Source: a virus
IMG/VR virus record: IMGVR_UViG_3300045988_139374
Span: 128,001 to 192,000 of that record
Reading direction: 5' to 3' (one strand)
Length of the DNA stretch: 64,000 bases
Both the position numbers and the translations under genes were made by a program. Positions 30,428 to 63,190 of this stretch are shown here, piece by piece (the first letter of the stretch is position 1; each line of letters begins with the position of its first letter). The notes under the pieces were generated by a model. That model saw only the letters and a list, made by a program, of their open reading frames with translations, searched no databases and was not told the origin of the DNA.

Positions 30428-30928
30428 TTACTGAACAGCCTGAGCATCGGAATCATCGCCACCAGCCATCTGCATATTCAGCAGGGTGCTGCCCAGCATA
30501 TCGACGCTAGACTCCAGACTAGACAGACGCTCGTTAACATCAGGAGCACCGACATTGACAACGAAGATGGTAGCAGTGACTTCCTTCATAGTAGGACCAT
30601 CAAAGGTTGCATTGCAAGCAGTACAAGTAGTTGCAGTATTCTCGACATCTGCACCACACTCAGGGCAGACATACTTGGTCTCGATAACAAAGTTAGGAAC
30701 CAGCTGAACATTGCGAACAACAGTCTTACCAGTAATAATCTGGATAGCAGTGTCATCGACCTTAGCAGTAATTGTATCATTACCAGTAAAGTCTGCCAGG
30801 ACCTCTTCAGCAGTCTTGGTGACACCTTCCATAGGACGAACCTTGAAAGTTGCAACGTCGTTGTACTGATTTACGCCGTCAGTGCACAGAAGATACTCAG
30901 CGCCATTGGACAGAACTAGCTTTTCCAT
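30428..30928 (-). CDS. CTG-codon-rich protein with a CPEC..CTAC zinc-ribbon motif (fibre-module accessory?)
   Basis: AAGGAGG precedes the ATG at 30928; the track start 30952 lies upstream of the SD. The antisense ORF 30356..30919 is an artefact. Confidence 0.6.
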   Translation of the reverse strand: MEKLVLSNGAEYLLCTDGVNQYNDVATFKVRPMEGVTKTAEEVLADFTGNDTITAKVDDTAIQIITGKTVVRNVQLVPNFVIETKYVCPECGADVENTATTCTACNATFDGPTMKEVTATIFVVNVGAPDVNERLSSLESSVDMLGSTLLNMQMAGGDDSDAQAVQ

Positions 30929-30977
30929 AGAAAAGTCCTCCTTAATGTACATTAATTTTTGATTGGAGTGAATAGAA

Positions 30978-31967
30978 ATGACAAATGTAGAGATGATCTT
31001 AAAATTAATGGAACCAGAGCTCGATACTATTCAACTAGCTAAATTGAAGAACGTGCTTGACACAATCTTAAGAACATCAAGAAACGTCCTACCAAATGAA
31101 GAATTGATAGAACGATTCAAACAACAGAAGAGCTTAGTAGGATTGAAACCATCTTCATTAAATGGATATGTAACAGAGGTTAGAGCAATGGCAAGATACT
31201 ATAATGATAAAAGCTATTGCGATATTACTACTGCTGATATGAAGGATTATCTTGCTTATATGGTTAAAGCAAGAAATCTTCAAGCTGCTACATTACAGAC
31301 TAAGATTAGAGCTATTAGCTCTTTCTATGAATTCTTAGTAAATGAAGAATTTATTGATAAGAATCCTACTAATAAGATTGAAAGAGTCTTGTGTGAAAAG
31401 AAGATCAAGAAAGCTTTCTCTAATGCTGAGATGGATGCTATGAGAGCAGAATGCTTAACAAAGAGAGATAGAGCATTCTTTGAGTTCCTTTATTCTACTG
31501 GAACTAGACTTGCAGAAGTCATTGCCCTTAATGTAAAGGATATCAATTTCTCAGAAGGAGAAGTTATTGTCTTCGGTAAAGGACATAAGGAAAGAGTTGT
31601 TTATCTAAGTAACATTTGCATGAAATATTTACAAGAATACTTAGAAGAACGATATGCTCAACCAGATGAACCTTTATTTACACACTTGACAAATGGTCAT
31701 AGATTGACTCCTAGAGCAGCAGAATTAATTCTTAAAGATATTGGCGATAGAGTAGGAGTAGAAAATGTGCATCCTCACCGATTCCGTAGAACTTGTGCTA
31801 CTCACTTGATGGACAGAGGAATGCCTGTTGAACAGATTCGAGAAGTACTCGGTCACGCCAAGTTAGAGACTACTATGATTTATTGTAATGTGAATAGCAG
31901 TAAAGTTAAAGCTAGTTTTAAAGAAGCATTTAATAGAGATACATATTTTAATGATGTAAATATTTGA
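30978..31967 (+). CDS. tyrosine recombinase (XerC/D / Rci-like); candidate invertase of the fibre cassette locus
   Basis: SAM-like N-domain. Catalytic signature TGTRLAEV (R), GKGHKERVV (K), HPHRFRRT (HxxR), LGHAKLETTMIY (H..Y). Confidence 0.8.
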   Translation: MTNVEMILKLMEPELDTIQLAKLKNVLDTILRTSRNVLPNEELIERFKQQKSLVGLKPSSLNGYVTEVRAMARYYNDKSYCDITTADMKDYLAYMVKARNLQAATLQTKIRAISSFYEFLVNEEFIDKNPTNKIERVLCEKKIKKAFSNAEMDAMRAECLTKRDRAFFEFLYSTGTRLAEVIALNVKDINFSEGEVIVFGKGHKERVVYLSNICMKYLQEYLEERYAQPDEPLFTHLTNGHRLTPRAAELILKDIGDRVGVENVHPHRFRRTCATHLMDRGMPVEQIREVLGHAKLETTMIYCNVNSSKVKASFKEAFNRDTYFNDVNI

Positions 31968-31980
31968 TTAGATATTATAA

Positions 31981-32020
31981 CTCTGATAGGAATACAAGAT
32001 GTCCTATCAGAGAATTTTTA
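31981..32020 (+). terminator. rho-independent terminator
   Basis: 11-bp stem CTCTGATAGGA / TCCTATCAGAG. Confidence 0.6.
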
Positions 32021-32041
32021 ATCAAAAAGGAGTAGTCTATT

Positions 32042-33250
32042 ATGATGACGAAAAAAGAATTAATTGACTTTTTAGTTGTATCTGGATACACTAGTAAGTT
32101 AATTAAAAAGATCAAATATGTTGGAGTAAATTATAAAGGAGAAGATATATTTGAATTTACCCACATTGGTCGCACGATATTGATCAATGCTACCGATCTA
32201 GCAAACTATCTCAGAGAATATGGTAGCTATATTAGTAGATATGAAGATGAAGAGAAAGATAGCTTTAAATATTTGTGCCAAAAGTATAGTTCTCATATTC
32301 TTGAACCTATTGTAAGATATTGTGATAATATCTTTGATCCAAATGATTATATTGGGTATAGACATGCAGATGATCATTATACATTTGGAAGTTGCACTAT
32401 TTTAAAGAATCTTGCAAGTAAAGATTGGAAGTATAAAACTATCAATGCAGAATTTACTCCAAATAATGCAATAAAGTTCTTGACTACTACATATGTATAT
32501 ACAATGTGTAGATGCGGAACTGTTAATTATATTACATTAGACGATGCAATGTCTCAATACCCTACATGTACCAAATGTAGTTTGATCAGCCACATTACTT
32601 ATCAATTGAATCATGATAGAAGTGAATCTAATTCTAGTATTCACTTCTATGATGCAATTGATATTAATCATTGTAGATTTAAATGTATTAATTGCGGTAC
32701 TATATACACTGAAAATATGGAAAGTGTTGTGGTACAAAATAGGAGATATGGTAAATGCGTAGCTTGCTATGCTAAAGAGCAGATTCCGAAAATTATTGGA
32801 AAGAAGCATGGCAAACTTACAATAGTTGATGCAGTTCCTGTAATTGATGAGAATGATCATCATATATCTTACTATAATGCAAAATGCAAATGCAAGTGTG
32901 GAAGAACTGTATACGCTAAATATGAAATTAGACCTTCTGGGAACAAATTATACGGAACCAGCTGCAAATATTGCGATAAGAAATATCCTGGGTCCATGGA
33001 GGGTATTGATGCTCGTAAAGGAGAGAAGCATGGTAAGTTAAAAATCATAAAGAAAGCATATACATATTACAATGCTGATGGCATTAAAGATTTTAATACT
33101 GTGCAACGTGTAATCTGTCAATGTGAATGTGGAAACTTTACCATAGTTCCATTTAGTGCTCTTAAATTAGGTAAAGTAAAATCTTGTGGTCATTGCGGAA
33201 AGAAAATAACTCTTCCTTTCCCTTATGATTTGTCATTTTATGAAATGTAG
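32042..33250 (+). CDS. multi-zinc-ribbon repeat protein (paralogue family of 23063 and 62393)
   Basis: SD AAAGGAG. Repeated modules: G.KHGKLTIV..C.C.CG, CxxC pairs, and KSCGHCG. Confidence 0.5.
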   Translation: MMTKKELIDFLVVSGYTSKLIKKIKYVGVNYKGEDIFEFTHIGRTILINATDLANYLREYGSYISRYEDEEKDSFKYLCQKYSSHILEPIVRYCDNIFDPNDYIGYRHADDHYTFGSCTILKNLASKDWKYKTINAEFTPNNAIKFLTTTYVYTMCRCGTVNYITLDDAMSQYPTCTKCSLISHITYQLNHDRSESNSSIHFYDAIDINHCRFKCINCGTIYTENMESVVVQNRRYGKCVACYAKEQIPKIIGKKHGKLTIVDAVPVIDENDHHISYYNAKCKCKCGRTVYAKYEIRPSGNKLYGTSCKYCDKKYPGSMEGIDARKGEKHGKLKIIKKAYTYYNADGIKDFNTVQRVICQCECGNFTIVPFSALKLGKVKSCGHCGKKITLPFPYDLSFYEM

Positions 33251-33281
33251 TATAATAAAGAAGGTAAATAATCTTTAATAT

Positions 33282-33324
33282 AAAAGGAGTGGATTCCATT
33301 CGCCCACTCCTTTTATTTTTTTTT
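33282..33324 (+). terminator. rho-independent terminator
   Basis: Stem AAAAGGAGTGG / CCACTCCTTTT followed by a long T-run. Confidence 0.7.
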
Positions 33325-33394
33325 CAAAAAGTAGATTAAAATTCAACTTCATAGTAATCCATATTGTGATAATGGTAGAATGGGGGTTAAAATA

Positions 33395-34218
33395 ATGGCT
33401 ACAATTAGGCAAATTAAAGTTAAAGATACATTGTATGATATTTCACCGTCTCCTAGTGGTACGCTTGATACCACTACTAAAGATAATGCATTTGCTTCTA
33501 GTGATGTTGCTCAAGCAAGTGCAACTTCTTGGACTGATGTAGCTGCTCTTGCTGCAACTGAAACTAACAAGAGCATGTTCACAAAAGCTACTCAGATGAT
33601 GAAAAATACCAGATACCTATATAATATTATTGGTACTGGTTTTAGTACTTCTAGTACTATTAAGAAAGCTATTGATGGAAAAGCAGCATCTAATCATAGT
33701 CATGATCTGAGTGCTATGATCAATGGACTTTCTGTTGGATCTGCTACTCCTCAAGATGCGGATTATTATGTGTGCCAATATGCGGGGGGGGGAACACCAC
33801 TTCCACATATCATAGAAGGCCGATGACTGCTCTTTGGGATTATATTAAGTCTAAAGGAAATAGTACTTGGCAACCTAAAGGAAGCTATGCTGCTGCAAAC
33901 CATAGTCACAATTATGCAGGATCTGGAAGTGCTGGTGGATCTGCAAATAGTGCAGTAAAGTTGGATACAGCAACTGCTGGTTCTACTACTCAACCTGTAT
34001 ACTTTAGTGGTGGTAAACCTGTAGCAATTGGATATACTATTGCTAAGAGCGTTCCTGCTGATGCTAATTTTAGTAATACTTGGCGTGGAATTCAGAATAA
34101 TCTTACTTCTACAGCAACAGATCAGTCCCTATCTGCTGCTCAGGGTAAAATTTTGAAAGATGCTCTTGATAAAAAGACTGGAGTTAGTGTATCTGGTACC
34201 ACTGTAGTATTTGGATAA
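33395..34218 (+). pseudogene. tail-fibre paralogue A, split into two frames by a G9 tract
   Basis: ORFs 33380..33826 and 33772..34218 overlap at the G-run. One extra G (G10) gives a single product, ..YYVCQYAGGGNTTSTYHRRPMTALWDYIKSK..GTTVVFG*. The N-terminus is homologous to fibre B (FASSDVAQ, RYLYN..GTGFST, IDGKAA.NHSH). Confidence 0.7.
33784..33792 (+). repeat. G9 homopolymer (candidate phase-variation / slippage tract)
   Basis: Counted directly: tgc GGGGGGGGG aac. It is the only long G/C run I found in this AT-rich window. Confidence 0.85.
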
Positions 34219-34238
34219 TAAATATTATAAATAAAATT

Positions 34239-34275
34239 CCCATAGGATTTTTATATCCTATGGGATTCTTTTATA
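34239..34275 (+). terminator. terminator after fibre A (duplicated at 43769)
   Basis: 10-bp stem CCCATAGGAT / ATCCTATGGG followed by ATTCTTTTATA. Confidence 0.6.
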
Positions 34276-34276
34276 A

Positions 34277-34570
34277 TCTGACGCTTCTATTAAGATCAAA
34301 ACAAAGTCTGGAAAATTTTCATATAGTAGCACTTACGGAAGAAATTATACATTTTATGATTATGAAGGAATATTTATTTCTGCATCAATTGACGGTATTG
34401 CATTTAACAATGATAATTATTTGTATAATTTGTATTATCCATCATTATATTCAATTCGTGTTAGTGATAAATATATTATTAAATCTTTCAATATTATAAG
34501 TTCTGATTCAGGAGGAAATAATATTTCTGGTATTGGAGATAATTTAAACATTATTATTTGCTATATTTAA
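34277..34570 (+). other. start-less fibre C-terminal cassette (97 codons)
   Basis: Core TGACGCT at 34279-34285 is preceded by an in-frame TAA. Reads SDASIKIKTKSGKFSYSS..NLNIIICYI*. Contains no Met codon and has no SD. Its own terminator follows. Confidence 0.55.
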
Positions 34571-34577
34571 AATTATT

Positions 34578-34612
34578 CAATAGAGAAATCTCTATTGGTT
34601 TTATTTTTTTTT
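34578..34612 (+). terminator. rho-independent terminator after the cassette
   Basis: 9-bp stem CAATAGAGA / TCTCTATTG followed by a long T-run. Confidence 0.65.
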
Positions 34613-34638
34613 GTAGAATATATTAAAATACAATAATC

Positions 34639-34645
34639 TGACGCT
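34639..34645 (+). repeat. TGACGCT core site with only a stub (TAA-SDAITK*)
   Basis: AATAATCTGACGCTATTACGAAGTAG. Confidence 0.5.
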
Positions 34646-34675
34646 ATTACGAAGTAGTCTGAGAAATCTGCCAAA

Positions 34676-34720
34676 CCTCTATAAAAGGGCCTAAAATGGG
34701 CATTTTAAGAGGGTAAAATC
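34676..34720 (+). repeat. orphan copy of the fibre B leader/promoter-like sequence
   Basis: CTATAAAAGGGCCTAAAATGGGCATTTTAAGAGGGTAAAAT here, versus CTATAAATAGCCCAAAATGGGTAATTTTAAGAAAGGAAAT at 35123-35162 just upstream of the fibre B ATG. Confidence 0.5.
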
Positions 34721-34880
34721 GAGTGATTTTACACTTATTTTCAGTACTAAAAATTCAATTCAAGATAATAAATGTTTGATCAATAATCAATCTTAATTTA
34801 AAATATATAACAATATGGTAATGAAAGATGGTAGAAAAATCTTTTACCTTTAACAGCAGACACACAAACTATCTTTCATA

Positions 34881-35067
34881 CATGAAGCATTCGATTTAAG
34901 ATTTATTGTGAAGACCGCTTTTAAGAGAGTCCCTTGGACTATAAACTGTGAAGACTTCGTTTAAGAAAATCAGATAAATCCATATCCAAGCCATTAAATG
35001 TAGTAGCGTCAGATTAAAATTGTGAAGCCTGCTTATATAGATTTTTGTGAAGACGACGGTTAAGATT
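34881..35067 (+). promoter_or_regulatory. five direct repeats TGTGAAGMC-N-TTTAAGA flanking a core site
   Basis: Copies start at 34881 (CATGAAGCATTCGATTTAAGA), 34907, 34947, 35021 and 35046. The minus-orientation core at 35005-35011 lies between copies 3 and 4. Confidence 0.5.
35005..35011 (-). repeat. TGACGCT core site (minus orientation) with a 24-codon stub
   Basis: The reverse complement reads TAA TCT GAC GCT ACT ACA.. = SDATTFNGLDMDLSDFLKRSLHSL*. Confidence 0.5.
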
Positions 35068-35171
35068 ATTACTCGGTGTGGTCTTTATGATCACCCCGGA
35101 ATTTCTTTTTTAACAAAATATCACTATAAATAGCCCAAAATGGGTAATTTTAAGAAAGGAAATTTAATTTT

Positions 35172-36431
35172 ATGGCTATAATTGATAAAATTAAGGTTGG
35201 TAGCACTACCTATGATGTGTCGCCTTCTGCTTCTGGTACTCTGAACACTACTGGCACTACTAAGTTTGCTTCTAGTGACGTTGCTCAGGGAAATGCAACT
35301 GGCTGGACTAATGTAGATCAGATGACCACTGCTGATAACCATGCTACTCTGTTTACTAAGATCACTCAGATGGCAAAGAACGTCCGCTATCTGTACAATG
35401 TTCTTGGTACTGGCTTCTCCACTGGTTCTACTGTTAAGGGTCAGATTGATGGAAAAGCAGCAGCTAATCACTCTCACAAGGTTGCTCAACTGCCTACTTC
35501 TAGTACTCAAGTTAACTCCAATGACTATATTCCTACTTCTGCTCTGATCTATTCTATGAATCAGACTCTAACTTCGCTAAATGACGCTAGTAATAAACTT
35601 GGAGTCAGGATTTATAATACTAAATATGCAGTTGGAGGTATTCCTACCAAATCCCAATTTGCTGCAACTGACACTGTACAAAGCATTATTATTAAAATGC
35701 TAGGAGATATGGGTCAGAAACCCATTGACTCTTCTACACCTAATACAAGATATAAGTCTCAGAATCTTGGTACTTGGTCTAGTGTTAGTGATGTAGATAA
35801 TTTTCTTTATAGTTGTTGTCATGATACTGGTTATTATGGTGCTACTATTGGTAGTTATGTTACGATTAAAGATGGTGTATATAATAAAGAATGGATTATT
35901 GCTGGTTTTGATTGTGAAAAGAATCATAAAGCTTCCGATGGCAATACAAAGGATAATGGATATGGTATATGCTTAATACCTAAGAAGAGCTTAGGTAATT
36001 ATGTATGGGATTCTAATTCTATTATAAATGGATACAACGGATCTGAAATGCATAAGTCTACATTACCTGTAGTTGCGAATAATCTTAGAAAAGTATTAGG
36101 AAATCATCTTGTACAGCGTAATGTCCTTCTGAGTAATGCTGTAGATTCTAACTATTATGCTAAAGGCTATTTTTGGACTACTGCATATTGTACTCTTATG
36201 AGTACAGGACAAGTAACTGGTACATTTGCTTCTAATAGAAACAAGTATGATGATGGAGAAGCTAATTATAAACTTCCTTTGTTTAATTATGAAATATGGA
36301 GTTTTGATACCTGGGCCTGGTTGCGAGGGCTATTCGGCTACGGTGTCTATGGCCTTACCACTTCTGGTGGTTCTGGTTATGACATCTGTTACGTTAGTCA
36401 CGGTCTTCGCCCGCTCATTTATATTAGGTAA
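35172..36431 (+). CDS. tail-fibre paralogue B: constant N-terminal part, NDAS junction, and a C-terminal receptor-binding domain ending in the DGR variable region
   Basis: The N-terminal ~105 aa are homologous to fibre A. The in-frame core is at 35582-35588 (LNDASNK). The C-terminus WAWLRGLFGYGVYGLTTSGGSGYDICYVSHGLRPLIYIR* matches TR apart from changes at adenines. Confidence 0.8.
   Translation: MAIIDKIKVGSTTYDVSPSASGTLNTTGTTKFASSDVAQGNATGWTNVDQMTTADNHATLFTKITQMAKNVRYLYNVLGTGFSTGSTVKGQIDGKAAANHSHKVAQLPTSSTQVNSNDYIPTSALIYSMNQTLTSLNDASNKLGVRIYNTKYAVGGIPTKSQFAATDTVQSIIIKMLGDMGQKPIDSSTPNTRYKSQNLGTWSSVSDVDNFLYSCCHDTGYYGATIGSYVTIKDGVYNKEWIIAGFDCEKNHKASDGNTKDNGYGICLIPKKSLGNYVWDSNSIINGYNGSEMHKSTLPVVANNLRKVLGNHLVQRNVLLSNAVDSNYYAKGYFWTTAYCTLMSTGQVTGTFASNRNKYDDGEANYKLPLFNYEIWSFDTWAWLRGLFGYGVYGLTTSGGSGYDICYVSHGLRPLIYIR
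35580..35597 (+). repeat. in-frame core site inside fibre B (putative expression-site crossover)
   Basis: AAT GAC GCT AGT AAT AAA at codons 137-142. Shares AATGACGCT with the cassette heads. Confidence 0.55.
36317..36417 (+). repeat. DGR variable region (VR)
   Basis: 101 nt aligning to TR 37379-37497. There are 12 mismatches, all at TR adenines, plus one 18-nt gap. A GC-rich 3-prime end, GGTCTTCGCCCG, is shared (IMH-like). Confidence 0.85.
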
Positions 36432-36468
36432 TGGAACTAGCCACCTTGTGTGGCTAAGTGGAATTACC
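36427..36468 (+). promoter_or_regulatory. hairpin immediately 3-prime of VR (candidate DGR target-recognition structure and/or terminator)
   Basis: Inner stem TAGCCAC / GTGGCTA nested in outer stem GGTAAT / ATTACC. Overlaps the stop codon. Confidence 0.5.
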
Positions 36469-36537
36469 GTAATATAAATGAAAGGTGAAGGCTTAACGAG
36501 TAAATATATTATTAATATAAAATAAGAGGTGGTTTGT

Positions 36538-37347
36538 GTGTCTGTCGTTAAGGGTAAAAGAAATCAATCTGATGTTGAATATTTTGATTATGCATATAAA
36601 GTTGTGGAGCATATAACTAAATTTCTTTTATCTGATCTTGGGATTAAGAAAACTTATAGAGACTTAAAAGTTTTTACTTATAAATCTCATATGGAGGAAG
36701 CTGATAAAGAAGAATTTGAGCATTTAGTAAATAAGTATGATTTGGAATTGGAAACAGATTTTCCTAATTGGCTAATGTGCTATTATAGAGAAACATTATT
36801 AACAATCATGAGAGATCTAATCAATAATATATCTGCAGCTTATACACTATATCCAAATTCTGTTTATGAATTTAATATCAAGAAACAGTATATTTCTGAT
36901 TCTATAGCTAATTGTTTCGATTTAAAACATCAACTCCAATTAGTAATTAGAATATTTCCAGCAAATATGAAGAAATATATTCCATTTGTAAAAGAAATCG
37001 ATAAGGAAATAGAGCTTCTTAAACAGTGGCGAAAGAACTTTACAGGAATTTCTAAGAAGCATTGCTACAATCAAGATGAAATCGCTAAGAGAGATGCTAT
37101 TAAGAGAGTAAATAAGATTGAAGCAAAGAATGAGCGTAAACTTCAAGTGAACAATAATTTCCTTGTAGAATATATGAAAGCAGTTTACACTCAACAAGTG
37201 CTTATGGATAATCTATATCATACAACCTTCTATTATAATCAGCAAAATCAGTATTGCTCCGAACTGCCTATTGCAGCTTGTACATTCTTTGATCAAAATG
37301 GATATTATATTGGAGATTCTGCTCATGATTTTGTTACAACTAACTAA
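36538..37347 (+). CDS. avd: DGR accessory protein (Avd-like by position; longer than canonical Avd)
   Basis: Lies between the target gene and TR. Helical, basic/acidic composition. AAGAGG lies 8 nt before the in-frame GTG at 36538 (track start GTG 36529). Confidence 0.45.
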   Translation: MSVVKGKRNQSDVEYFDYAYKVVEHITKFLLSDLGIKKTYRDLKVFTYKSHMEEADKEEFEHLVNKYDLELETDFPNWLMCYYRETLLTIMRDLINNISAAYTLYPNSVYEFNIKKQYISDSIANCFDLKHQLQLVIRIFPANMKKYIPFVKEIDKEIELLKQWRKNFTGISKKHCYNQDEIAKRDAIKRVNKIEAKNERKLQVNNNFLVEYMKAVYTQQVLMDNLYHTTFYYNQQNQYCSELPIAACTFFDQNGYYIGDSAHDFVTTN

Positions 37348-37378
37348 ATAGTAAGGTGACTCTCTATAAATAATCTCG

Positions 37379-37497
37379 CTGGTTGCGAGGGCTATACGGC
37401 AACAACAACCTCAACAACAACAATGTCTATGGCCTTACCACTTCTGGTGGTTCTGATTATAACAACTGTAACAATAGTAACGGTCTTCGCCCGATCA
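37379..37497 (+). repeat. DGR template repeat (TR)
   Basis: 119 nt, rich in AAC/AAT codons in the VR frame (LRGLYGNNNLNNNNVYGLTTSGGSDYNNCNNSNGLRPI). Non-coding location upstream of RT. Confidence 0.85.
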
Positions 37498-37651
37498 ACA
37501 GCATCTTGGCAATTTAAGGATCGAAAGATCTGGCCAGGATGTCTGTATGAGGAGGGAGTTCCCTTTCCGAAAGGAAGAAACAATAAAGCTGGCTACGGTT
37601 CTGGCATTACGATGCTGAATCTATTGGGCTGGTATATTTTTTTTTATTTTT

Positions 37652-38938
37652 ATGATTATTGATTTTAGTAATGAAGATTGGGGCGAAAATCCCTGTGAAT
37701 ATACTGAAGGAAAATTAGATTCTATTGCAGATCCAGATAAATTATATCAATCTTATAGAAAAGCTTCTAAACCAATTTATTATAAAGCATCTACTCAAAG
37801 ATATGGATTAAATCTATTATCTAATATTGCTATTGCAAATGAAGCATTAAATAATGGATCTTATAAAATTGGAGATCCATATGAATTTATTCTCACAGAA
37901 CGCGGTAGAATTAGATATGTAAAAGCATTATATATGTTTGATCAAGTAGTGCAGAGATCTTTCAATGATAATGTATTAAATCCTGCTATTGCTAATAAGA
38001 TGATTTATGATAATGGAGCTTGTGTAAAAGGAAAAGGTGTTGCTTTTACAAGAATGAGATTTAAGCAGCATCTACAACAAGCATATTATCAATTTGGATA
38101 TGATGGTTATATAATGATCATCGATTTTTCTAAATATTTTGATAATATTCTTCATCAAGAAGCTTTAAAACAATTCGAACCTCTATTAACGCCAGAAGAA
38201 TACAATTTTCTTAAAATTACTTTTGATACATTCAAACTAGATGTATCTTATATGTCAGATGCAGAATATCTAGAAGCTAGAGATTCTCTGTTTAATCTTC
38301 TAGAATATTCTATGATGGCAAAAGAAAATTTCAAAGGATTAAAGCTTCTTGAAAAGTCTGTTGGAATTGGTAATCAAACTTCTCAAGGAACTGGAATGTA
38401 CTATCCTCATGAAATAGACAATTATGTGACTATAGTAAGAGGATATGGATTATATGGAAGGCATATGGATGATACATATGTATTTGCTAAAACTAAAGAA
38501 GAATTACAACAACTTCTTGAAGAAATAAAAGAATTGTGTAAGAATCTTGGAATTCATATTAATCTTAAGAAAACTAGAATAGAACCCATCAAGAATACAA
38601 TTTCATATCTTAAAATAAATTATAAAATTATTGAAACTGGAAGAGTATTTGAATTAGTCCCAAATAAAGTATTTAAAAGAGAAAAAGATAAATTAACAAA
38701 ATATAGGGATCTTTGCATTCAATATAAAATGACTGCTATTACAGTTCTTCAATGTTATCTTAGTTGGAGAGGTGTATATAATAAATTTGATTCTAAAAGA
38801 AAAATATATGCACTGGATTGCTATTTTAAAGATCTTTATTGTTTAGGATTTAGAGATACAAATCTATATGATTTGTTGCATTTCTATATGCGTGTAGAAA
38901 GAGAGAAATTAAATAACTATCCAGTCATGAAATATTAA
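37652..38938 (+). CDS. DGR reverse transcriptase
   Basis: IGNQTSQ (the DGR-RT hallmark) and YGRHMDDTYVF (YxDD box). No SD before the ATG. Confidence 0.85.
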   Translation: MIIDFSNEDWGENPCEYTEGKLDSIADPDKLYQSYRKASKPIYYKASTQRYGLNLLSNIAIANEALNNGSYKIGDPYEFILTERGRIRYVKALYMFDQVVQRSFNDNVLNPAIANKMIYDNGACVKGKGVAFTRMRFKQHLQQAYYQFGYDGYIMIIDFSKYFDNILHQEALKQFEPLLTPEEYNFLKITFDTFKLDVSYMSDAEYLEARDSLFNLLEYSMMAKENFKGLKLLEKSVGIGNQTSQGTGMYYPHEIDNYVTIVRGYGLYGRHMDDTYVFAKTKEELQQLLEEIKELCKNLGIHINLKKTRIEPIKNTISYLKINYKIIETGRVFELVPNKVFKREKDKLTKYRDLCIQYKMTAITVLQCYLSWRGVYNKFDSKRKIYALDCYFKDLYCLGFRDTNLYDLLHFYMRVEREKLNNYPVMKY

Positions 38939-38943
38939 AATAC

Positions 38944-38980
38944 TAGGTAAGGAATTTATTTCCTTACCTATTTTATTTTT
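38944..38980 (+). terminator. rho-independent terminator
   Basis: 10-bp stem TAGGTAAGGA / TCCTTACCTA followed by TTTTATTTTT. Confidence 0.7.
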
Positions 38981-39026
38981 AATTTTTTATTTGACAATTA
39001 ATTACTAAATTTAAGGAGGCTTATAT

Positions 39027-39617
39027 ATGTCCGACAAACGTACTGATTACATTTCTAAAGATCAAATGTATATGGGAATTGCTCAACTTGCTGCAATGAG
39101 ATCTAAAGATCCTAATTCTCAAGTTGGTGCAGTTTTTGTATCTTCTAATGATCGTATCCTTAGCATTGGTTATAATGGATTTCCTAATGGAATTTCTGAT
39201 GATGAATTCCCTTGGGCAAGAGAAGCTGAATCTGAAGAGAATACTAAATATCCTTATGTAGTTCATGCAGAAGAAAATGCTATTCTTAACTTCCGTGGAG
39301 ACCTTTCTGCTTTTAAAGGCTCTACTCTTTACGTAACAATGTTTCCTTGCCATAACTGTACGAAGGCTCTTATTCAAGTTGGCGTTAAGCATATTTATTA
39401 TGGTATTAATAAATATCCTGATACGGCAGATTTTAGAGAAGCTACTAGAATGCTTGATGCTGTTGGAATCAAGTATGAACAACTGGTCAATGATATGATT
39501 ATTATATCAACAAAAGATTTTATTGATGCTTTTAATAATCTATCAGATAAATCAAGAGATTTAACAGATCTAACAGGGTTTGTTGATAGGATGAATTTTC
39601 CTGAGTATTATAAATAA
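39027..39617 (+). CDS. dCMP deaminase (ComEB/T4 Cd-like) with a C-terminal extension
   Basis: HAEENAI and PCHNCTKALIQVG zinc-binding motifs. AAGGAGG upstream. Confidence 0.8.
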   Translation: MSDKRTDYISKDQMYMGIAQLAAMRSKDPNSQVGAVFVSSNDRILSIGYNGFPNGISDDEFPWAREAESEENTKYPYVVHAEENAILNFRGDLSAFKGSTLYVTMFPCHNCTKALIQVGVKHIYYGINKYPDTADFREATRMLDAVGIKYEQLVNDMIIISTKDFIDAFNNLSDKSRDLTDLTGFVDRMNFPEYYK

Positions 39618-39747
39618 TTCTTAAAATTTCTTTTGAGGATATATTATAATATTGATAGAAAGGAGTGGTAATATGATTAGGCCACCGTAACAATAGTATT
39701 CTTAAATCTCCAAAAGTATAAAATCACTAAGGAGGATAATTTCAAAC

Positions 39748-41463
39748 ATGGAAAACAATAATGTCAATCTATCTAAATATGGATATCAAGAGCAAAGATA
39801 TCCTATTGATACTACTGGCTATAAGCAACTTCATGACTATAACATCGAGTATCAGATGGCACATCAGAAGGAGTTTAACTTCCTTCAGCCTCTTCCTAAT
39901 GATCTTATGTCTACTACTAAGACATATCCTCATTCTGATGAGTTTGAGTTTTCTGGACAGCTTGAAATCATTAATTATGATAAAGCTTGTGAAGAAGACC
40001 TTAGGGAAGGAAATGGTTTTATTGTAGAACCAGCTGGTAGAAATATCAAGAAAGATCTTCATGCTGAGGATGGTATTTTCTCTCCTAAGTTTGGACAAAC
40101 CTTGGCTGATACTAATCCTTTTATGGATCGTTATCGTTGTCGGTGTAAAGAAGGAGGGCTTCGTGGCCGTAATAATGCCGGTTTGCGTTGTCCAAAATGT
40201 GGTCATCTATGTTCTTATGTAGATGATAATTTTAATTATCGTGGATGGATTAAACTTTCTGAGCCTTATAAGTTTATTCATCCTACCTTCTACACTTATA
40301 TCGATTCTATCCTTGGTAAAGGTATCTATATCCAGGGTAATAAGCGTACTAAGCTTGAAAATATTCTTGACGTTACTGATACTCAATTGGTTCTTAATTC
40401 TATTAAGATTGATGATCCCAAACTTAAAGATGAACCGTTCTTTGGTATTGGAATGATTGCTTTTGTCGAACGCTTTGATGAGATCATGGATTATTATATC
40501 AAGAAGCGCCCTAATAAGCGTAATTATTATGATGCCATTTATCAGTCTCGTGATTCTGTATTTTCATCTTCGCTTCCTGTCATCACTACATTGCTTCGTC
40601 CGTTCGATATAGATGGCAACAACATGACCTATGAGCCAACGAATGCAATGTATACAATGATTAATAAACTTGCTACTTCTATTAATAAGAATAAAACTGC
40701 TATCCAGAGAGAACCTAAAATCAAGAACCAGCAGCTTTATAATCTTCAAAAGAAGTTTATGGAAATTTATGCTGAACAAATTTCTATTCTAGCAGGTAAG
40801 AAGGGAGATTTTAGATGTCTACTTGGTGGACGTTATAACTTCTCTTCTCGTTGTGTTATTGTTCAAAATCCTAATCTTCGTATTGATGAGATTACTATGC
40901 CTGCTGTAGCATTGACTGTTATGCTTGAGCAAAGAATTAAAAATATTCTCTGCCGTATGCATGGTATGACTCCTACACAAGCACATGATATTTGGTATAA
41001 AGCTACTATTGAGCCTAATAAACGTATAAATACCATTATTCAATCCATCATCGATGATTTTAAACACAAAGGCATGCGTGGGCTTCCGGTTATCATTGGA
41101 CGAAATCCTACACTTGCTTATGGCTCTATTCTGCAAATGTTCTGTGTTGGGATTACTGATTCTTATACCTTAGCAGTTCCTCTACAGATCTTAAAATTCT
41201 TGGCTGCTGACTTCGACGGCGACGTTATATATTGCTTGGTTCCGATGAATCAGACTTTTATTCGTCTTGCTTGGGAAAAATTCAATCCTAGGAATGCTAT
41301 GTATATTTCTAGAGATAATGGATATTTCAATCCCAATGCATTGATGCAAAGAGATACACTTATTAATGCTAATACTTTAGCAAGATTAGGAAGGGAGAAT
41401 TACACACAAGAAGATCTTAATAAGTTCGATAGAATTCAGAAAGCTATTAAAGCAGCTGGTTAA
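39748..41463 (+). CDS. multisubunit RNA polymerase beta-prime-like subunit, N-terminal fragment
   Basis: Zn-ribbon CRCKEGG..CPKCGH. LLGGRYNFSSRCVIVQNP (compare LLGKRVDYSGRSVIV). IIGRNPTLAYGSILQ (compare NRAPTLHRLGIQ). AADFDGD metal-binding motif. The ORF ends ~85 aa after DFDGD. Confidence 0.75.
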   Translation: MENNNVNLSKYGYQEQRYPIDTTGYKQLHDYNIEYQMAHQKEFNFLQPLPNDLMSTTKTYPHSDEFEFSGQLEIINYDKACEEDLREGNGFIVEPAGRNIKKDLHAEDGIFSPKFGQTLADTNPFMDRYRCRCKEGGLRGRNNAGLRCPKCGHLCSYVDDNFNYRGWIKLSEPYKFIHPTFYTYIDSILGKGIYIQGNKRTKLENILDVTDTQLVLNSIKIDDPKLKDEPFFGIGMIAFVERFDEIMDYYIKKRPNKRNYYDAIYQSRDSVFSSSLPVITTLLRPFDIDGNNMTYEPTNAMYTMINKLATSINKNKTAIQREPKIKNQQLYNLQKKFMEIYAEQISILAGKKGDFRCLLGGRYNFSSRCVIVQNPNLRIDEITMPAVALTVMLEQRIKNILCRMHGMTPTQAHDIWYKATIEPNKRINTIIQSIIDDFKHKGMRGLPVIIGRNPTLAYGSILQMFCVGITDSYTLAVPLQILKFLAADFDGDVIYCLVPMNQTFIRLAWEKFNPRNAMYISRDNGYFNPNALMQRDTLINANTLARLGRENYTQEDLNKFDRIQKAIKAAG

Positions 41464-41591
41464 TGCTAAATGCGCAATAGTAGTAGCCAGCATTTCTGAA
41501 TGAATGCTATACTCTATCATTGATATTATCAGTATATAGGCAGTACTGATGATATAAGTCAATCTCCTATTTTATAAATCTCTTAAAGAGG

Positions 41592-41634
41592 GCCGGTAGA
41601 GATTTGATTCTCTACCGGCTTTTCTTTTTTTTTT
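41592..41634 (+). terminator. rho-independent terminator
   Basis: 10-bp stem GCCGGTAGAG / CTCTACCGGC followed by a long T-run. Confidence 0.75.
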
Positions 41635-41641
41635 ATTTATT

Positions 41642-41875
41642 TTAGATATAAAATATTCTTACATTATATTTTACTATAGAAATAAGTTGTTTATTTAGAT
41701 CGATATTAAATGTAACGATTACATAATTTAAATAATCAGGGACGTAATATATGGCAACATATGGAAATCCAGAGATTGAATTTATGTCTGCACATATTGC
41801 AGATATTACAATTATATTGTTAAATGATTTCATTTCTGAAATATACATATCTCTTTGCTTAATAGAAGCGTCATT
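41642..41875 (-). other. start-less fibre cassette (77 codons), last of the minus-strand array
   Basis: Core at 41867-41873. Reads NDASIKQRDMYISEMK..NVRIFYI*. Confidence 0.55.
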
Positions 41876-42168
41876 TACATATCAAAATACCAACATTTGC
41901 ATGTAATAGGATTTTTACCATCGGTATATATTTCATTATCTGCAAGCCTTCCGACTTTTGTCATATAAACTTCACAGTTAGTAACTTTAAATGTACCATC
42001 ATCAAAATATCCACTGGCAGCTATTACAGGAAATGTATAATATCCAGCATTTCCTTTTGGATATAGTATTGGCATTGCTTGAATTATATATGCTTTAGAT
42101 AAGTACCCGCATGATGCATATTCACTATATGGAACTTTACAAGTATTAGTTTTAAGAGAAGCGTCATT
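41875..42168 (-). other. start-less fibre cassette (97 codons)
   Basis: Core at 42160-42166. Reads NDASLKTNTCKVPYSEY..CKCWYFDM*. Confidence 0.55.
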
Positions 42169-42496
42169 GTGCTTTACCTTTAATATAAAATATATTAATG
42201 ATGACTTCTGCATTTGATAAAGATGTTTTGTTAAAAGGCATAATTTTTTCATGCAATGTATCAATACCTAGTATATATAATTTTCTGCCAGTTGTCCAAA
42301 TACCAGTATTTGGATCTTGTGTTGAATCGATACTTGTAGATAGGAAAGTTAAATACATTCTAACAGTATTACTACAATATGCATAGTGAGCTATAATATC
42401 ATCATCAGTAACAGAAATATCTGTATCAAGAATAAAATAAGAAATATCATTCTTTACTCTACCTTGCTTCATTTTAATTTTAGTAGAAGCGTCATT
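42164..42496 (-). other. start-less fibre cassette (110 codons)
   Basis: Core at 42488-42494. Reads NDASTKIKMKQGRVKND..NIFYIKGKAQ*. Its TGA stop lies inside the next core. Confidence 0.55.
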
Positions 42497-42506
42497 TATA
42501 TTGGTA

Positions 42507-42767
42507 TTATAGATTTTTTAAATAAAATACAATTAATCTTCTAATAGATGAATGCATTGTTAAAGTATTATTAGGGAATCCTCTTATATCTATATAATAA
42601 CATGAATCATCTTCATCATACCATATATCTACATATTCAGCTTGCTCAGTTTTACCTGTTATTTTAGATTCAATATAAAGTCCAACAATTGGAATTCCTA
42701 AATAAAAAGCTTGTTTACTACTTTTTGGAAGAGTTAATTCTATATTATATATAATAGAAGCGTCATT
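42507..42767 (-). other. start-less fibre cassette (86 codons)
   Basis: Core at 42759-42765. Reads NDASIIYNIELTLPKSS..LIVFYLKNL*. Confidence 0.55.
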
Positions 42768-43065
42768 TACCAAAATAATAATATATTTTTATATTAAATG
42801 CTGTATTTACTTTTATTAATTTATAATCATTAATTTCAAACAATTGAATTATAGAATAAAAACTACCCTTTTCATATATTCCTTGATACATTGCTGGAAA
42901 TATATACTTAGGAGAATAATTGATAGGAAATAATGTTTGATTATACGTGGTACTATACACAGCAAATATTATATATGCTGATAGCCCAGATGGCACATCA
43001 TATCTTTCTTTATATATTCCATTCTCATCAGTTGTTACATCTTTACTCTTAATAGAAGCGTCATT
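42763..43065 (-). other. start-less fibre cassette (100 codons)
   Basis: Core at 43057-43063. Reads NDASIKSKDVTTDENGIYK..NIKIYYYFGK*. Its TGA stop lies inside the next core. Confidence 0.55.
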
Positions 43066-43384
43066 CACTAATATAATAGTATATTTTAATACCAATTTTA
43101 TCTGATGGCTTTATAAGCTGTCCATTGTCATTTATTTTATATACTTGAATTACAATATATCTATTAACAGCATCTGCAATTTTTCCATATGAGCCAGAAT
43201 ATATTGCAGGAATTATATATATTGGAACATTCATTTGATTTACTAGATTTCCAGTCATTGTGGATGTATTACTATATATCGCTAAAATATTTTTATGAGA
43301 ACTAATTCCAAATACGCCTAATGCAATTTTATATTCTCCACTGCTATCAGTTTCCACTATTTCATGTTTAATAGAAGCGTCAGA
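43061..43384 (-). other. start-less fibre cassette (107 codons)
   Basis: Core at 43376-43382. Reads SDASIKHEIVETDSSGEYK..GIKIYYYISE*, paralogous to the 42763 cassette. Its TGA stop lies inside the next core. Confidence 0.55.
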
Positions 43385-43388
43385 CTTG

Positions 43389-43673
43389 TTAAATATAATA
43401 TATAATAATTGAAACATTACGTCCATTACGAGATGCCGTGCTGCCATTAATATCTGATGTATATACAAGAATAGTTCTAATTACCCATTCAACATCTGTA
43501 GTTTTAAATATTTGAATTAATGGAATAGATGAACTGGTATTTACAGCTGGATTTATGTATGCATTTATTAAAATTCCATTAGTAAATTTATATAAGTAAT
43601 CATTGTCATTTAAACCATTTGAATATTTTCTAGGATATACGGTATCAGTTTTAATCTTAATAGAAGCGTCAAA
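43389..43673 (-). other. start-less fibre cassette (94 codons), first of the minus-strand array
   Basis: Core at 43665-43671, with TAA directly 5-prime. Reads FDASIKIKTDTVYPRKYS..NVSIIIYYI*. It contains no Met codon, so it is absent from the ORF track. I translated it by hand and found no internal stop. Confidence 0.55.
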
Positions 43674-43680
43674 TTATTAG

Positions 43681-43704
43681 ATATTAAAATACTAGGTAAG
43701 GAAT
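43681..43704 (+). repeat. 24-nt exact copy of the RT gene 3-prime end plus half of its terminator (recombination scar)
   Basis: ATATTAAAATACTAGGTAAGGAAT occurs at both 38932-38955 and 43681-43704. Confidence 0.7.
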
Positions 43705-43724
43705 CTACTAATGTTACAGTCGAT

Positions 43725-43805
43725 GGTACCACTATAGTATTTGGATAATAAATATTATAAATAAAATTCCCATAGGATTTTTATATCCTATGGGATTCTT
43801 TTATA
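43725..43805 (+). repeat. 81-nt copy of the fibre A 3-prime end plus terminator (compare 34195-34275)
   Basis: One mismatch across 81 nt. Preceded by the remnant coding sequence ..TNVTVDGTTIVFG*. An 8-nt insertion GTCTTATA lies before the core site. Confidence 0.75.
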
Positions 43806-43814
43806 GTCTTATAA

Positions 43815-44393
43815 TCTGACGCTACTAAGAATTTTGGAAATGGAAGTCTAATTAAATCTATTACTTATGAAGGATCCTATACTACAAGTACTGTTTATTC
43901 ATATCAAATCGATGATTGGCTAAAAGTAAATTGTACTTCTACTAATCCTATTAGAACAAAAATATCTAGATTATATGATATTGTATTTTTCTTCGATACA
44001 GATGTTGAGGAGTTAGCTATAAATATGCTTAGACATTTATTTGCTGTTGGAGCTGACTATAAGTATCTTGGTGGATTTATACTCATGAAGAAAATATCAA
44101 ATGAATGGACACCTGGTAGATCTCTTTCTCAGGCTAGCTTTGATTATTTTTTAGGCCCATATATAGAATATGGATTGGCACCTAAACAATTTGTTAAATA
44201 TCGAGTAATTAGAGAGAATAATGCATATTATATAGATAGATATGTTGATACATCAGAGAAAAACTACAAAAATGATAATATTTCCTATCAGATATTATAT
44301 AGGAATACAGAACCGCATAAATATTTAATATATGGAATAGATTTTGAAGATCATGTATCTGATGTTGTGAATAGTAAGCCAGTAGATCAGTAA
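43815..44393 (+). other. start-less fibre cassette (192 codons)
   Basis: Core at 43817-43823, preceded by an in-frame TAA. Reads SDATKNFGNGSLIKSITYEG.. and continues into track ORF 44025..44393 in the same frame with no intervening stop (checked codon by codon). Confidence 0.55.
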
Positions 44394-44404
44394 ATATAGT
44401 ATAC

Positions 44405-44679
44405 AATGACACTTCTAAAATAAAAACAATATACATGGATTAGGTAATGTAAAAACAACAACTAGGTATATAGATAATCAATATGGTAGTTATTATGAAA
44501 AATGCTATTATCTAGCTTCTGGAATTATGGTTGGGTATATGCTTGATCAAAGTACAATAGGATTATTATCTACATTCTTAACACAAGTAGGTAAATATAT
44601 AATGGCATTTAGATATGATAACACTGCAAAATCAATGAATACGATAGAGTGCACTATATCTATGCTTTATTATATTTAA
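44405..44679 (+). pseudogene. decayed fibre cassette (mutated core TGACACT plus a frameshift)
   Basis: Reads NDTSKIKTIYMD then TAG. An 80-codon frame (GLGNVKTTTRYIDNQYG..ISMLYYI*) continues in a different frame and has the family-typical ..YYI* ending. Confidence 0.45.
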
Positions 44680-44919: not shown

Positions 44920-45001
44920 GCAGGAATGGTGGAATGGCAGACACGCTAGACTTAGGATCTAGTTCTTCGGAGTGAGGGTTCAAGTCCCTTTTCCTGCACC
45001 A
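44920..45001 (+). tRNA. trnL: tRNA-Leu (anticodon UAG), class II with a long variable arm, encoded CCA
   Basis: Acceptor GCAGGAA / TTCCTGC. Anticodon stem CTAGA / TCTAG with loop CTTAGGA. T-arm GAGGG TTCAAGT CCCTT. 3-prime ACCA. Confidence 0.85.
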
Positions 45002-45033: not shown

Positions 45034-45110
45034 GGGCTATTAGCTTAGTTGGTCAGAGCTTCTGGCTCATAACCGGATGGTCGTAGGTTCGAGTCCTACA
45101 TGGCCCACCA
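45034..45110 (+). tRNA. trnM: tRNA with CAU anticodon (elongator Met or lysidine-modified Ile2), encoded CCA
   Basis: Acceptor GGGCTAT / ATGGCCC. Anticodon stem TCTGG / CCGGA with loop CTCATAA. T-arm GTAGG TTCGAGT CCTAC. The 1-72 pair is G-C, so it is not initiator-like. Confidence 0.8.
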
Positions 45111-63148: not shown

Positions 63149-63190
63149 AAGGCCGAGTGGACTAAATATCCACCCGGCTTTATTTTTTTT
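63149..63190. terminator. terminator between convergent genes
   Basis: Stem AAGGCCGAGTGGA / TCCACCCGGCTT (one mismatch) followed by a T-run. Confidence 0.6.

Follow-up and report, generated by a model that had tools for sequence, protein, structure and literature searches.

A codon-usage break inside a phage tail-fibre gene probably marks the recombination site of a mobile expression module

Why does a phage tail-fibre gene change its codon style in mid-frame? The gene, fibre B (open reading frame (ORF) 35172..36431, plus strand, 419 aa), lies in a 64,000-nt stretch of the IMG/VR virus record IMGVR_UViG_3300045988_139374 (positions 128,001 to 192,000; hereafter, the window), and its codons 137-140 read N-D-A-S (AAT GAC GCT AGT, 35580-35591). 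A first-pass annotation, made from the sequence alone, described fibre B as rich in CTG and G+C before this motif and as AT-rich after it, in the style of the silent cassettes; it placed the break exactly at the NDAS core and noted that a mosaic joint there would fit a crossover at the core. Here, we argue, with a probability that we put at about 0.8, that this core (GACGCT in the DNA) is where a mobile expression module of 943 bp recombines, and that the module belongs to a shufflon-like system.

The composition of fibre B changes in the manner described. In 150-nt windows, G+C is 0.44-0.47 across 35200-35550 and 0.29-0.37 across 35600-36250. G+C at codon positions 1/2/3 (GC1/2/3) is 0.45/0.48/0.34 in codons 1-136 and 0.40/0.39/0.17 in codons 141-379, and the silent cassettes have a GC3 of 0.06-0.17. 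CTG provides five of the eight Leu codons before the core (CTA 2, CTT 1) and one of 15 after it (CTT 8, TTA 4, CTA 1, TTG 1; Fisher p = 0.0086 for CTG versus the remaining Leu codons). Moreover, Lys AAG (6/8 before vs 7/18 after), Thr ACA (0 vs 6), Val GTA (1 vs 9), Gly GGA, Arg AGA (3/5 after) and Ile ATA (4/15 after) all shift in the same direction across the core. The return of G+C to 0.42-0.49 at 36250-36450, which begins at codon 380 (GC3 0.50), reflects the variable region of a diversity-generating retroelement (DGR) and is separate from the break.

We located the break by single-change-point likelihood over codons 1-380. GC3 gave an optimum after codon 146, with codons 138, 131, 135 and 139 nearly equal (27/2000 permutations), and G+C at all positions gave a broad optimum at codons 108-126 (19/2000 permutations). 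Because it removes amino-acid composition, we also used a synonymous score, i.e. the per-codon log-ratio of synonymous frequency in three GC-rich/CTG-style genes of the window versus 24 bulk genes. With this score, the best split was at codon 132, the ten best splits fell at codons 129-141, none of 2000 permutations was as good, and the mean dropped from +0.14 per codon before the core to -0.38 after it. We conclude that the break exceeds chance and lies within ~5 codons of the core. That it falls exactly at the core is beyond this resolution of composition and is given by comparison with relatives.

Among the best 120 protein database matches to fibre B, 25 are full-length (68-96% identity) and ~80 comprise the C-terminal part alone (~250 aa, starting at Met 152, 176 or 180) because they are silent copies called from their first ATG; many orphan C-terminal ORFs in the assemblies and gene calls of these phages should be read as silent cassettes. 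Two proteins (P0035, P0041) align from residue 137 on and are unrelated upstream, two (P0027, P0032) begin at (N)DAS, and one (P0090) keeps the N terminus to ..SLNDA and diverges after it. Using residues 1-140 as the query, we found 97 public fusions in which the constant part ends, at positions 138-140, in ..L(T/S)SLND(A); what follows belongs to at least 28 unrelated C-terminal families, the DGR-linked type being the commonest (31 clusters). When related loci were compared with the window by blastn, alignments started at 35580-35582 or stopped at 35588-35603, and the first mismatches after the core were at 35589-35590 in three of five alignments and at 35597 and 35600 in the other two. Identity before and after the core was discordant, with 98.1% and 88.3% in L024, 91.0% and 94.4% in L002, and 92.2% and 82.3% in L013, which returns to 94.3% in the next gene. 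Thus, similarity is interrupted at the junction and not continuous across it. In total, these alignments indicate that the two sides of the break are separate evolutionary units with separate histories, which is why codon usage changes between them.

Other loci delimit the unit that carries the N terminus. In L003, window positions 34275-34649 are fused straight to 35582-39503, leaving an empty site (..ataataatctGACGCTagtaataaac..). The piece absent from this site (34635-35603) reappears on that contig at a distance of 64 kb (or 212 kb), in a copy of 93% identity that lies in a second cassette array (L005) before the cassette KNFGNGS. In four independent assemblies with one and the same arrangement (L006-L009), the module is 3.2 kb further right, before the cassette IQVKFIEIRNTY, while in L004 it is absent at both positions. 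Outside the module, L004-L009 are colinear and 98.5-99.97% identical, with the intervening cassettes in the same order and orientation; the ends of the module and its targets share T-GACGCT only, and the comparison of empty with occupied sites fixes the junctions to the single base. Going beyond the first-pass annotation, we conclude that the N-terminal half of fibre B is part of a discrete module of 943 bp (34640-35588), which lies between two direct cores and consists of core, promoter region, 136 codons and core. As far as assembled sequences tell, this module has moved between at least nine positions, and it moves through precise excision and insertion and not solely by inversion.

A circular form of the module was also found. 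Contig L032 (ENA ERZ27287044, k141_685194) has 1085 nt, of which the first and last 141 are identical, 141 being the assembler's k; it is thus a circle of 944 bp with one module and one core, in which the right end is joined to the left. Its identity to the L005 module is 98.6-99.5%, and the two halves of the alignment overlap by 8 nt that hold the core. Reads spanning the right-end-to-left-end junction must exist; they come from an excised circle or from modules in tandem, and recombination between direct cores would produce either one. The same junction is present at the end of L033 (a 1374-nt contig), and P0193, which is more distant, has a related one. Two public proteins, one of them encoded on L032, consist of the N terminus followed by I-T-K and a stop, as encoded at the left end of the module (GACGCT ATT ACG AAG TAG). 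When IMG/VR was searched for the exact circle junction, there was no match; the junction surfaced through the protein search. Members of the P0144 cluster were considered as further circle junctions and rejected, as they had been chained through a fusion protein. In L033 and P0193, a fibre N terminus ending at the core is followed by the left end of the module, and in L033 the upstream gene encodes the zinc-ribbon protein that precedes fibre A, a paralogue of the fibre B N terminus, in the window. In some genomes, a module may thus be inserted behind an expression site that is itself fixed.

We propose that any two cores can undergo conservative site-specific recombination within T-GACGCT. Recombination between direct cores would excise the DNA between them, so that the module leaves as a 944-bp circle, and the circle could integrate at any core and in either genomic orientation. 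Wherever it inserts, the module would bring the promoter region and the 136 codons into frame with the cassette that follows the core, and each event would join the constant anchor to another putative receptor-binding tip. Inverted cores would probably lead to inversion of the segment between them; among relatives, cassette families occur in opposite orientations. The precise joints, the mobility of the module and the circle or tandem junction are observed, and the enzyme and the directionality of these reactions are inferred.

The most likely catalyst would be an Xer-like tyrosine recombinase (ORF 30978-31967) encoded 2.3 kb upstream of the cassettes. It has a near full-length catalytic domain (PF00589, 3.9e-39) and a SAM-like N-terminal domain, resembles XerA, XerC and XerD in NCBIfam, in each case under the family cut-off, and has its best PDB matches in the XerC-like 4a8e (5e-31) and in XerD (1a0p, 4.5e-25); the R, K, H-x-x-R, H and Y motifs, assigned by eye, are TGTRLAE, GKGHKER, HPHRFRRT, LGHAKLE and MIYCNV. 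Pfam detected no other site-specific recombinase, no serine recombinase and no transposase among 42 ORFs of the window, which include all 28 of at least 150 aa without earlier annotation. Moreover, orthologues with 91-99% identity lie 1.3-2.3 kb from cassette arrays in L002, L027, L029 and L030. We lean towards this ORF as the switching enzyme. Near a more distant orthologue (L031), a repeated TCTGATGCTTTAC motif was considered as a cassette array and rejected as a tandem protein repeat.

Could a simpler process account for the joint? A shufflon that works by inversion only, with the N terminus as a fixed expression site and serial inversions as in R64/Rci or Rin, would explain why cores occur in both orientations, why seven minus-strand cassettes face fibre B, why homologous cassette families are oppositely oriented between relatives and why an inverted core is conserved inside the module. 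However, L004, L005 and L006 differ solely in the presence or position of a 943-bp unit between direct cores, every intervening cassette keeps its order and orientation, and the right-to-left junction exists as a 944-bp circular contig. Inversion as the only process is therefore improbable, although inversions may occur besides. We give still less weight to a small non-autonomous transposon that would insert strictly at GACGCT, duplicate 7 bp of its target and be served by a transposase encoded elsewhere. A duplicated T-GACGCT does flank the unit, empty sites have one copy, and the two module ends are imperfect inverted repeats of each other (TCAGACT..ACTTCG..TAA; a score reached by 38/2000 shuffles and thus modestly above chance), so that a circle junction would be roughly palindromic. 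Yet the core pre-exists in a ~20-bp conserved in-frame site before every cassette, the circle junction retains exactly one core, as conservative site-specific recombination predicts, and the enzyme encoded beside the locus is a tyrosine recombinase, with no transposase found by Pfam in the ORFs scanned.

Tail-fibre genes are commonly mosaic, and the variants compared here come from different samples; a one-off, ancient mosaic, generated by homologous recombination or horizontal transfer at a conserved linker in the absence of an active system, would accord with both points. It is very unlikely and already contradicted by the data: dozens of cores precede promoterless in-frame cassettes, the 7 bp shared at junctions are too short for homologous recombination, three states of the module occur in genomes that are 98.5-99.97% identical, a circular junction contig exists, and there are at least 28 fusion partners. 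Least probable of all is that the compositional shift is due to chance or is a by-product of domain composition, i.e. of an Ala/Gly/Thr/Ser-rich fibrous N terminus followed by a globular domain. While GC1 and GC2 fall together with GC3, the synonymous-only score, which is blind to amino-acid composition, gave the sharpest break, which already contradicts this explanation; moreover, fibre A has a homologous N terminus and yet the bulk codon style, and the contrast is repeated with nine different tips.

Several observations weigh against the proposal that the core is the recombination site of a mobile module, or against parts of it. The arrangements were compared between assemblies and samples and not within one population, and only L003 and L005 share a contig. 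The 944-bp circular contig is equally compatible with tandem modules. The L005 and L006 modules are 96.3% identical while the 3.2 kb between their sites are 99.97% identical, as if the two were distinct alleles of the module and not the product of a single recent hop. A scan for the sigma-70 consensus revealed no enrichment over shuffles and identified no promoter. The link to the recombinase is one of adjacency and of sole candidate within 64 of ~276 kb, and in L031, where an orthologue of 63% identity likewise sits beside gyrase, there is no GACGCT array within 10 kb of it; the enzyme may thus have another primary role. Finally, to call the style of the three GC-rich/CTG genes a high-expression style is a guess, and fibre A, which is outside cassette switching and frameshifted in the window, has the bulk style.

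The core consensus is always in frame, as D-A-S-I-K, before promoterless C-terminal cassettes. The window contains 12 cassette-associated T-GACGCT sites, and a looser motif search gave eight matches versus 0.77 expected. Across 64 distinct sites in the window and in relatives, the logo reads W-M-T-GACGCT-TCTATTAAR, with T-GACGCT invariant, a strong right arm and a weak left arm; the signal of the right arm stems in part from the selection rule (at least 4/9 matches) and from coding for S-I-K. Nine window sites open stop-free frames of 77-192 codons that start with N/S/F-D-A-S/T, and with the one fused to the fibre B N terminus there are ten in-frame cassettes, nine of them silent. The cassettes abut, the stop codon of one overlapping the site of the next, and have no start context of their own; the short crossover sites between segments are present in both orientations. 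The cassette at 34277..34570 lies between terminator-like hairpins (34238-34265 and 34577-34598) and belongs to family 7, which is also present in L002, L003 and L024, while a homologue of the cassette at 43815..44393 is the one expressed in L005. Beyond the window, relatives have dozens of cassettes in both orientations and at several loci, about 17-20 of them at a second locus; in total, we count 47 cassette families and 139 instances at 16 loci, with varying order and orientation.

Between the minus-strand array and the plus-strand cassette whose core is at 43818, the segment 43681-43800 repeats, in diverged form, the last ~20 codons of fibre A, together with a terminator hairpin that is unchanged; it opens with 24 nt (43681-43704) that match the 3' end of the reverse transcriptase gene (38932-38955) without a difference. 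By its sequence, this segment looks like the scar of an older rearrangement.

The module itself has several conserved parts. The 38 nt right of the left core (attacgaagtagtctgagaaatctgccaaac) are invariant in two module lineages that are ~75-83% identical elsewhere. From its position, the non-coding body is expected to act as a promoter. Four direct repeats (TGTGAAGAC-N5-TTAAGA), which flank the internal inverted core, are confined to the module within the window, save for one match with one mismatch at 23084; of the two module lineages, one has kept them and the other has them in altered form. They are candidate accessory or regulatory binding sites, and the internal inverted core may likewise have a role. 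An Rfam search of 33200-37700 returned only a far sub-threshold GOLLD fragment, and the duplicated leader-like motif corresponds to no known RNA family there. On the minus strand, 40 nt at 34840-34879, which come after the internal inverted core and a 24-codon stub, are 83% complementary to the start of the gene in the avd position (36522-36561); this stretch is probably the relic of a deleted cassette-avd unit.

The cassette now fused to the N terminus is itself found silent, without the N terminus, in L001, L003, L004-L009, L027, L029 and L030. In an AlphaFold2 model based on a 39-sequence alignment, pLDDT exceeds 90 from about residue 190, where a globular domain begins, whereas it is low for residues 1-185; the core lies at the end of a helix predicted for residues 122-143 and before a stretch of low confidence. 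The proposal that a domain linker falls at NDAS is compatible with this model, albeit weakly. Foldseek of the model against PDB gave weak C-type-lectin matches (E >= 0.6), and the best match was an IgA peptidase (E 0.013).

This cassette is the target of a DGR, with a variable region (VR) at the 3' end of fibre B followed by a template repeat (TR) and a reverse transcriptase (RT). All ten mismatches between VR and TR are at template adenines, of which there are 23 in the aligned blocks. In L003, the DGR still adjoins the cassette while the cassette is silent. We conclude that two diversification systems, cassette switching and the DGR, act on one gene in the window. The ORF in the avd position had no family match in Pfam, NCBIfam or PHROGs. 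VR and TR differ by 18 nt (AACAACCTCAACAACAACAA in TR where VR reads GG), and full-length homologues have 419-439 aa; from these lengths, the length of VR seems to be variable, which is unusual for DGRs. In L001, L025 and L029, a DGR-type cassette lies directly upstream of a dCMP deaminase gene with no RT between them, and in L025 an avd-like ORF precedes it. Thus, the DGR has been gained, lost or relocated relative to its target.

The codon styles on the two sides of the core can be placed among those of other window genes. Compared with the N terminus (see above), the scores are lower in bulk genes (-0.41 +/- 0.17), in the DGR-linked cassette (-0.32) and in the short silent cassettes (-0.46 to -0.87, about -0.66), the last being at or under the bulk mean; within the seven-cassette minus-strand array, scores are -0.57 to -0.87. 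The contrast of an N terminus above its C-terminal part is repeated in 13 other fusions with nine different tips. Because the N terminus shares its preferences with a minority of the phage's own genes, it is native and not foreign. The DGR-linked cassette is the most often fused partner, and the order of N terminus, DGR-linked cassette and short cassettes would fit synonymous selection that scales with the time translated, a possible reason for the richer style of the N terminus. The three GC-rich/CTG genes have GC3 of 0.31-0.45, CTG as 50-93% of Leu codons and AAG as 93% of Lys codons; they also use CGT, a long shadow ORF lies opposite each of them, and they had no match in Pfam or PHROGs.

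Several known systems share features with this locus. As in the R64 shufflon (Rci tyrosine recombinase, sfx sites, PilV tips), a constant N terminus is joined in frame to alternative C-terminal segments at many short asymmetric sites with a ~7-bp core, in which the right arm is conserved and the left arm poorly so, and a tyrosine recombinase, here the candidate enzyme, is encoded beside the array. Rci recombines inverted sites only, whereas the products seen here (precise excision and insertion, and a circle junction) are those of direct repeats, so that the locus is not an inversion-only system; moreover, the moving part here carries the promoter region and the 5' end, there are dozens of cassettes in several loci, and the recombinase is Xer-like. 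In the Mycoplasma pulmonis vsa/HvsR and M. agalactiae vpma/Xer1 systems, an Xer-like tyrosine recombinase switches surface antigens by means of one expression sequence (promoter and 5' end), many silent 5'-truncated genes and short sites; Xer1 reportedly performs inversions and excisions. Here too a single expression sequence is combined with silent truncated genes, but the system is viral, whereas the Mycoplasma systems are bacterial and recombine their expression site by inversion, and we know of no description of them that includes a free-standing module between two direct sites with a circular form.

Integrons likewise store promoterless cassettes in arrays, use a tyrosine recombinase, pass through a circular intermediate and express a cassette according to its position beside a single promoter. 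By contrast, here the promoter-bearing piece moves to the cassette, the cassettes are abutting in-frame protein fragments and not whole genes, and the sites have ~20 nt, unlike attC sites (imperfect palindromes of 60-140 nt). The recombinase scored 100 bits against TIGR02249 (integron-integrase cut-off 265) and 69 against NF011946 (cut-off 435). The DGR is of the type of BPP-1 Mtd in that RT, TR and a VR at the 3' end of a receptor-binding gene, adenine-only mismatches and a hairpin after VR are present; it departs from that type in that its target can itself be swapped as a cassette and in many relatives (e.g. L003) lies silent, in the 18-nt difference between VR and TR, and in the cassettes without an adjacent RT in L001 and L025.

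Gin, Cin and Min are serine invertases that work with an enhancer and Fis; in our locus, the sites are unrelated to theirs, and no serine recombinase was found by Pfam in the window ORFs scanned. The outcome with Gin of Mu, Cin of P1 and Min of p15B is the same, alternative tail-fibre C termini and hence host range (PMC6109161). Programmed inversions are common in tail-fibre genes (PMC9881135). In the Rin shufflon of Bifidobacterium and Eggerthella prophages, which uses a tyrosine recombinase, and the shufflon of BV01-like Phocaeicola phages, a phage-encoded recombinase swaps the C terminus of a receptor-binding protein or tail fibre at short asymmetric repeats, as it does in our proposal, and the reports describe 3-5 cassettes in one locus of 1.7-3 kb, inversion and a fixed constant region (PMC6109161, PMC8778435, PMC13596623). 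Unlike these systems, the one described here has at least nine silent cassettes in the window, 47 families overall and a mobile expression module, and it resides in a lytic-type phage with a ~276-kb genome, where a DGR acts on one of the cassettes.

The repertoire exceeds those of known phage systems by an order of magnitude or more. To our knowledge, recombinase-driven switching of phage tail fibres is known only as small inversion systems with 2-6 variants. What seems new is that the expression module moves rather than the tips, and that cassette switching and a DGR meet in one gene; a literature search of incomplete coverage found no description of a mobile expression module, of phage arrays of this size or of DGR-coupled cassette switching. 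If active, the system could allow a single virus to sample dozens of receptor-binding folds and to fine-tune one of them, which bears on how large gut phages keep pace with variable host surfaces. With its 7-bp overlap and ~20-bp site, it is also a compact natural system for in-frame domain swapping. In a wider reading, to which we give even odds, this ~276-kb gut phage has a "reverse integron" and three layered diversifiers of host range, the third being a poly-G switch in fibre A. The Xer-like enzyme would cut out the 0.94-kb promoter-plus-anchor module as a circle, which would re-insert on an ecological time scale before several dozen tips at two or more loci tens of kilobases apart, while one stored tip would still be mutagenised by the DGR when silent.

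Searches for annotated relatives gave little. Megablast of 30900-44500 against GenBank phages gave no match, and the sole tblastn match of fibre B was to Roseburia phage Jekyll (residues 12-80, 45% identity); thus, these searches of GenBank phages provide no annotated relative. The host may be a member of the Lachnospiraceae. The left flank of L003, which contains DHFR/ThyA and not gyrase, recombinase and fibre A, was considered as a giant inversion; we dropped this idea, as the flank is common to several contigs with 80-90% identity to the window, so that a gene order specific to this lineage seems the better reading. The coordinates of all features are listed in Table 1.

Table 1. Features of the fibre B locus and related elements in the window
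Feature	Position	Strand	Basis or remark
Left core, T-GACGCT	34639..34645	+	Occupied/empty junctions
Non-coding body of module	34646..35171	+	
Leader-like motif, first copy	34679-34717		Within module
Four direct repeats, TGTGAAGAC-N5-TTAAGA	34907-35065		Flank internal inverted core
Internal inverted core, conserved	35005-35010	-	Within module
Conserved hairpin and T-run	35074-35112		Terminator-like, within module
Leader-like motif, second copy/ribosome-binding site, Shine-Dalgarno-like AAAGGA	35124-35171	+	
Constant N-terminal 136 codons of fibre B, GC-richer CTG/AAG style	35172..35579	+	
Right core, T-GACGCT, in codons N137-D138-A139; probable crossover point	35582..35588	+	
C-terminal cassette now fused, ~280 aa	35589..36431	+	Frame, AlphaFold2
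VR of DGR	36317-36417	+	Repeat pair with TR
Hairpin just past fibre B stop	36438-36456		Read from sequence
ORF in avd position, 272 aa	36529-37347	+	Position only
TR of DGR	37379-37497	+	Repeat pair with VR
RT	37652-38938	+	RVT_1, 1.2e-12
Xer-like tyrosine recombinase, candidate catalyst	30978..31967	+	Pfam Phage_integrase
Core sites, plus strand	34280, 34640, 35583, 43818	+	Motif
Core sites, minus strand	35010, 41872, 42165, 42493, 42764, 43062, 43381, 43670	-	Motif
Silent cassette SDASIKIKT..., 97 aa	34277..34570	+	Core GACGCT 34280-34285
Array of seven abutting silent cassettes, 77-110 aa, N/S/F-DAS starts	41642..43673	-	
Silent cassette SDATKNFGNGS..., 192 aa	43815..44393	+	Core and frame
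Scar-like segment, copy of fibre A 3' end and terminator, upstream of cassette 43815..44393	43681-43800		
Fibre A, non-mobile paralogue of the N terminus, two ORFs	33380..34218	+	Homology
GC-rich/CTG-style genes	21885-22775; 30428-30952; 63189-63917	+; -; -	Codon usage

Fibre A is homologous to the N terminus of fibre B, as the first-pass annotation had stated (59% identity over 110 aa, E 6e-43), and, again in line with it, ends 12 residues past ..LKDALDKK. It has a Phage_fiber_rpt domain (PF22337) near the C terminus, is split into two ORFs (33380-33826 and 33823-34218) and has the bulk codon style, with scores of -0.38 and -0.32. Its frame breaks exactly at a run of nine G (33784-33792); in relatives, the run is GCA+G9 or GCT+G9 and in frame (L024, L028) or G8 and out of frame (L002). 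Such a pattern could reflect on/off switching by slipped-strand mispairing, or else an error in sequencing the homopolymer.

Elsewhere in the window, two tRNA genes (44920-44998 and 45034-45107) are followed by ~1 kb, to 46070, with a G+C of 0.35 and no ORF of more than 92 codons; Rfam, run on the whole window, returned the two tRNAs only and no family for this ~1 kb. A dATP/dGTP diphosphohydrolase-like protein (PF18909, 60772-61335) hints at modified DNA, and a split multisubunit RNA polymerase beta-prime-like subunit is encoded at 39748-41463. Both are consistent with a jumbo phage, the contigs of relatives being 250-288 kb long.

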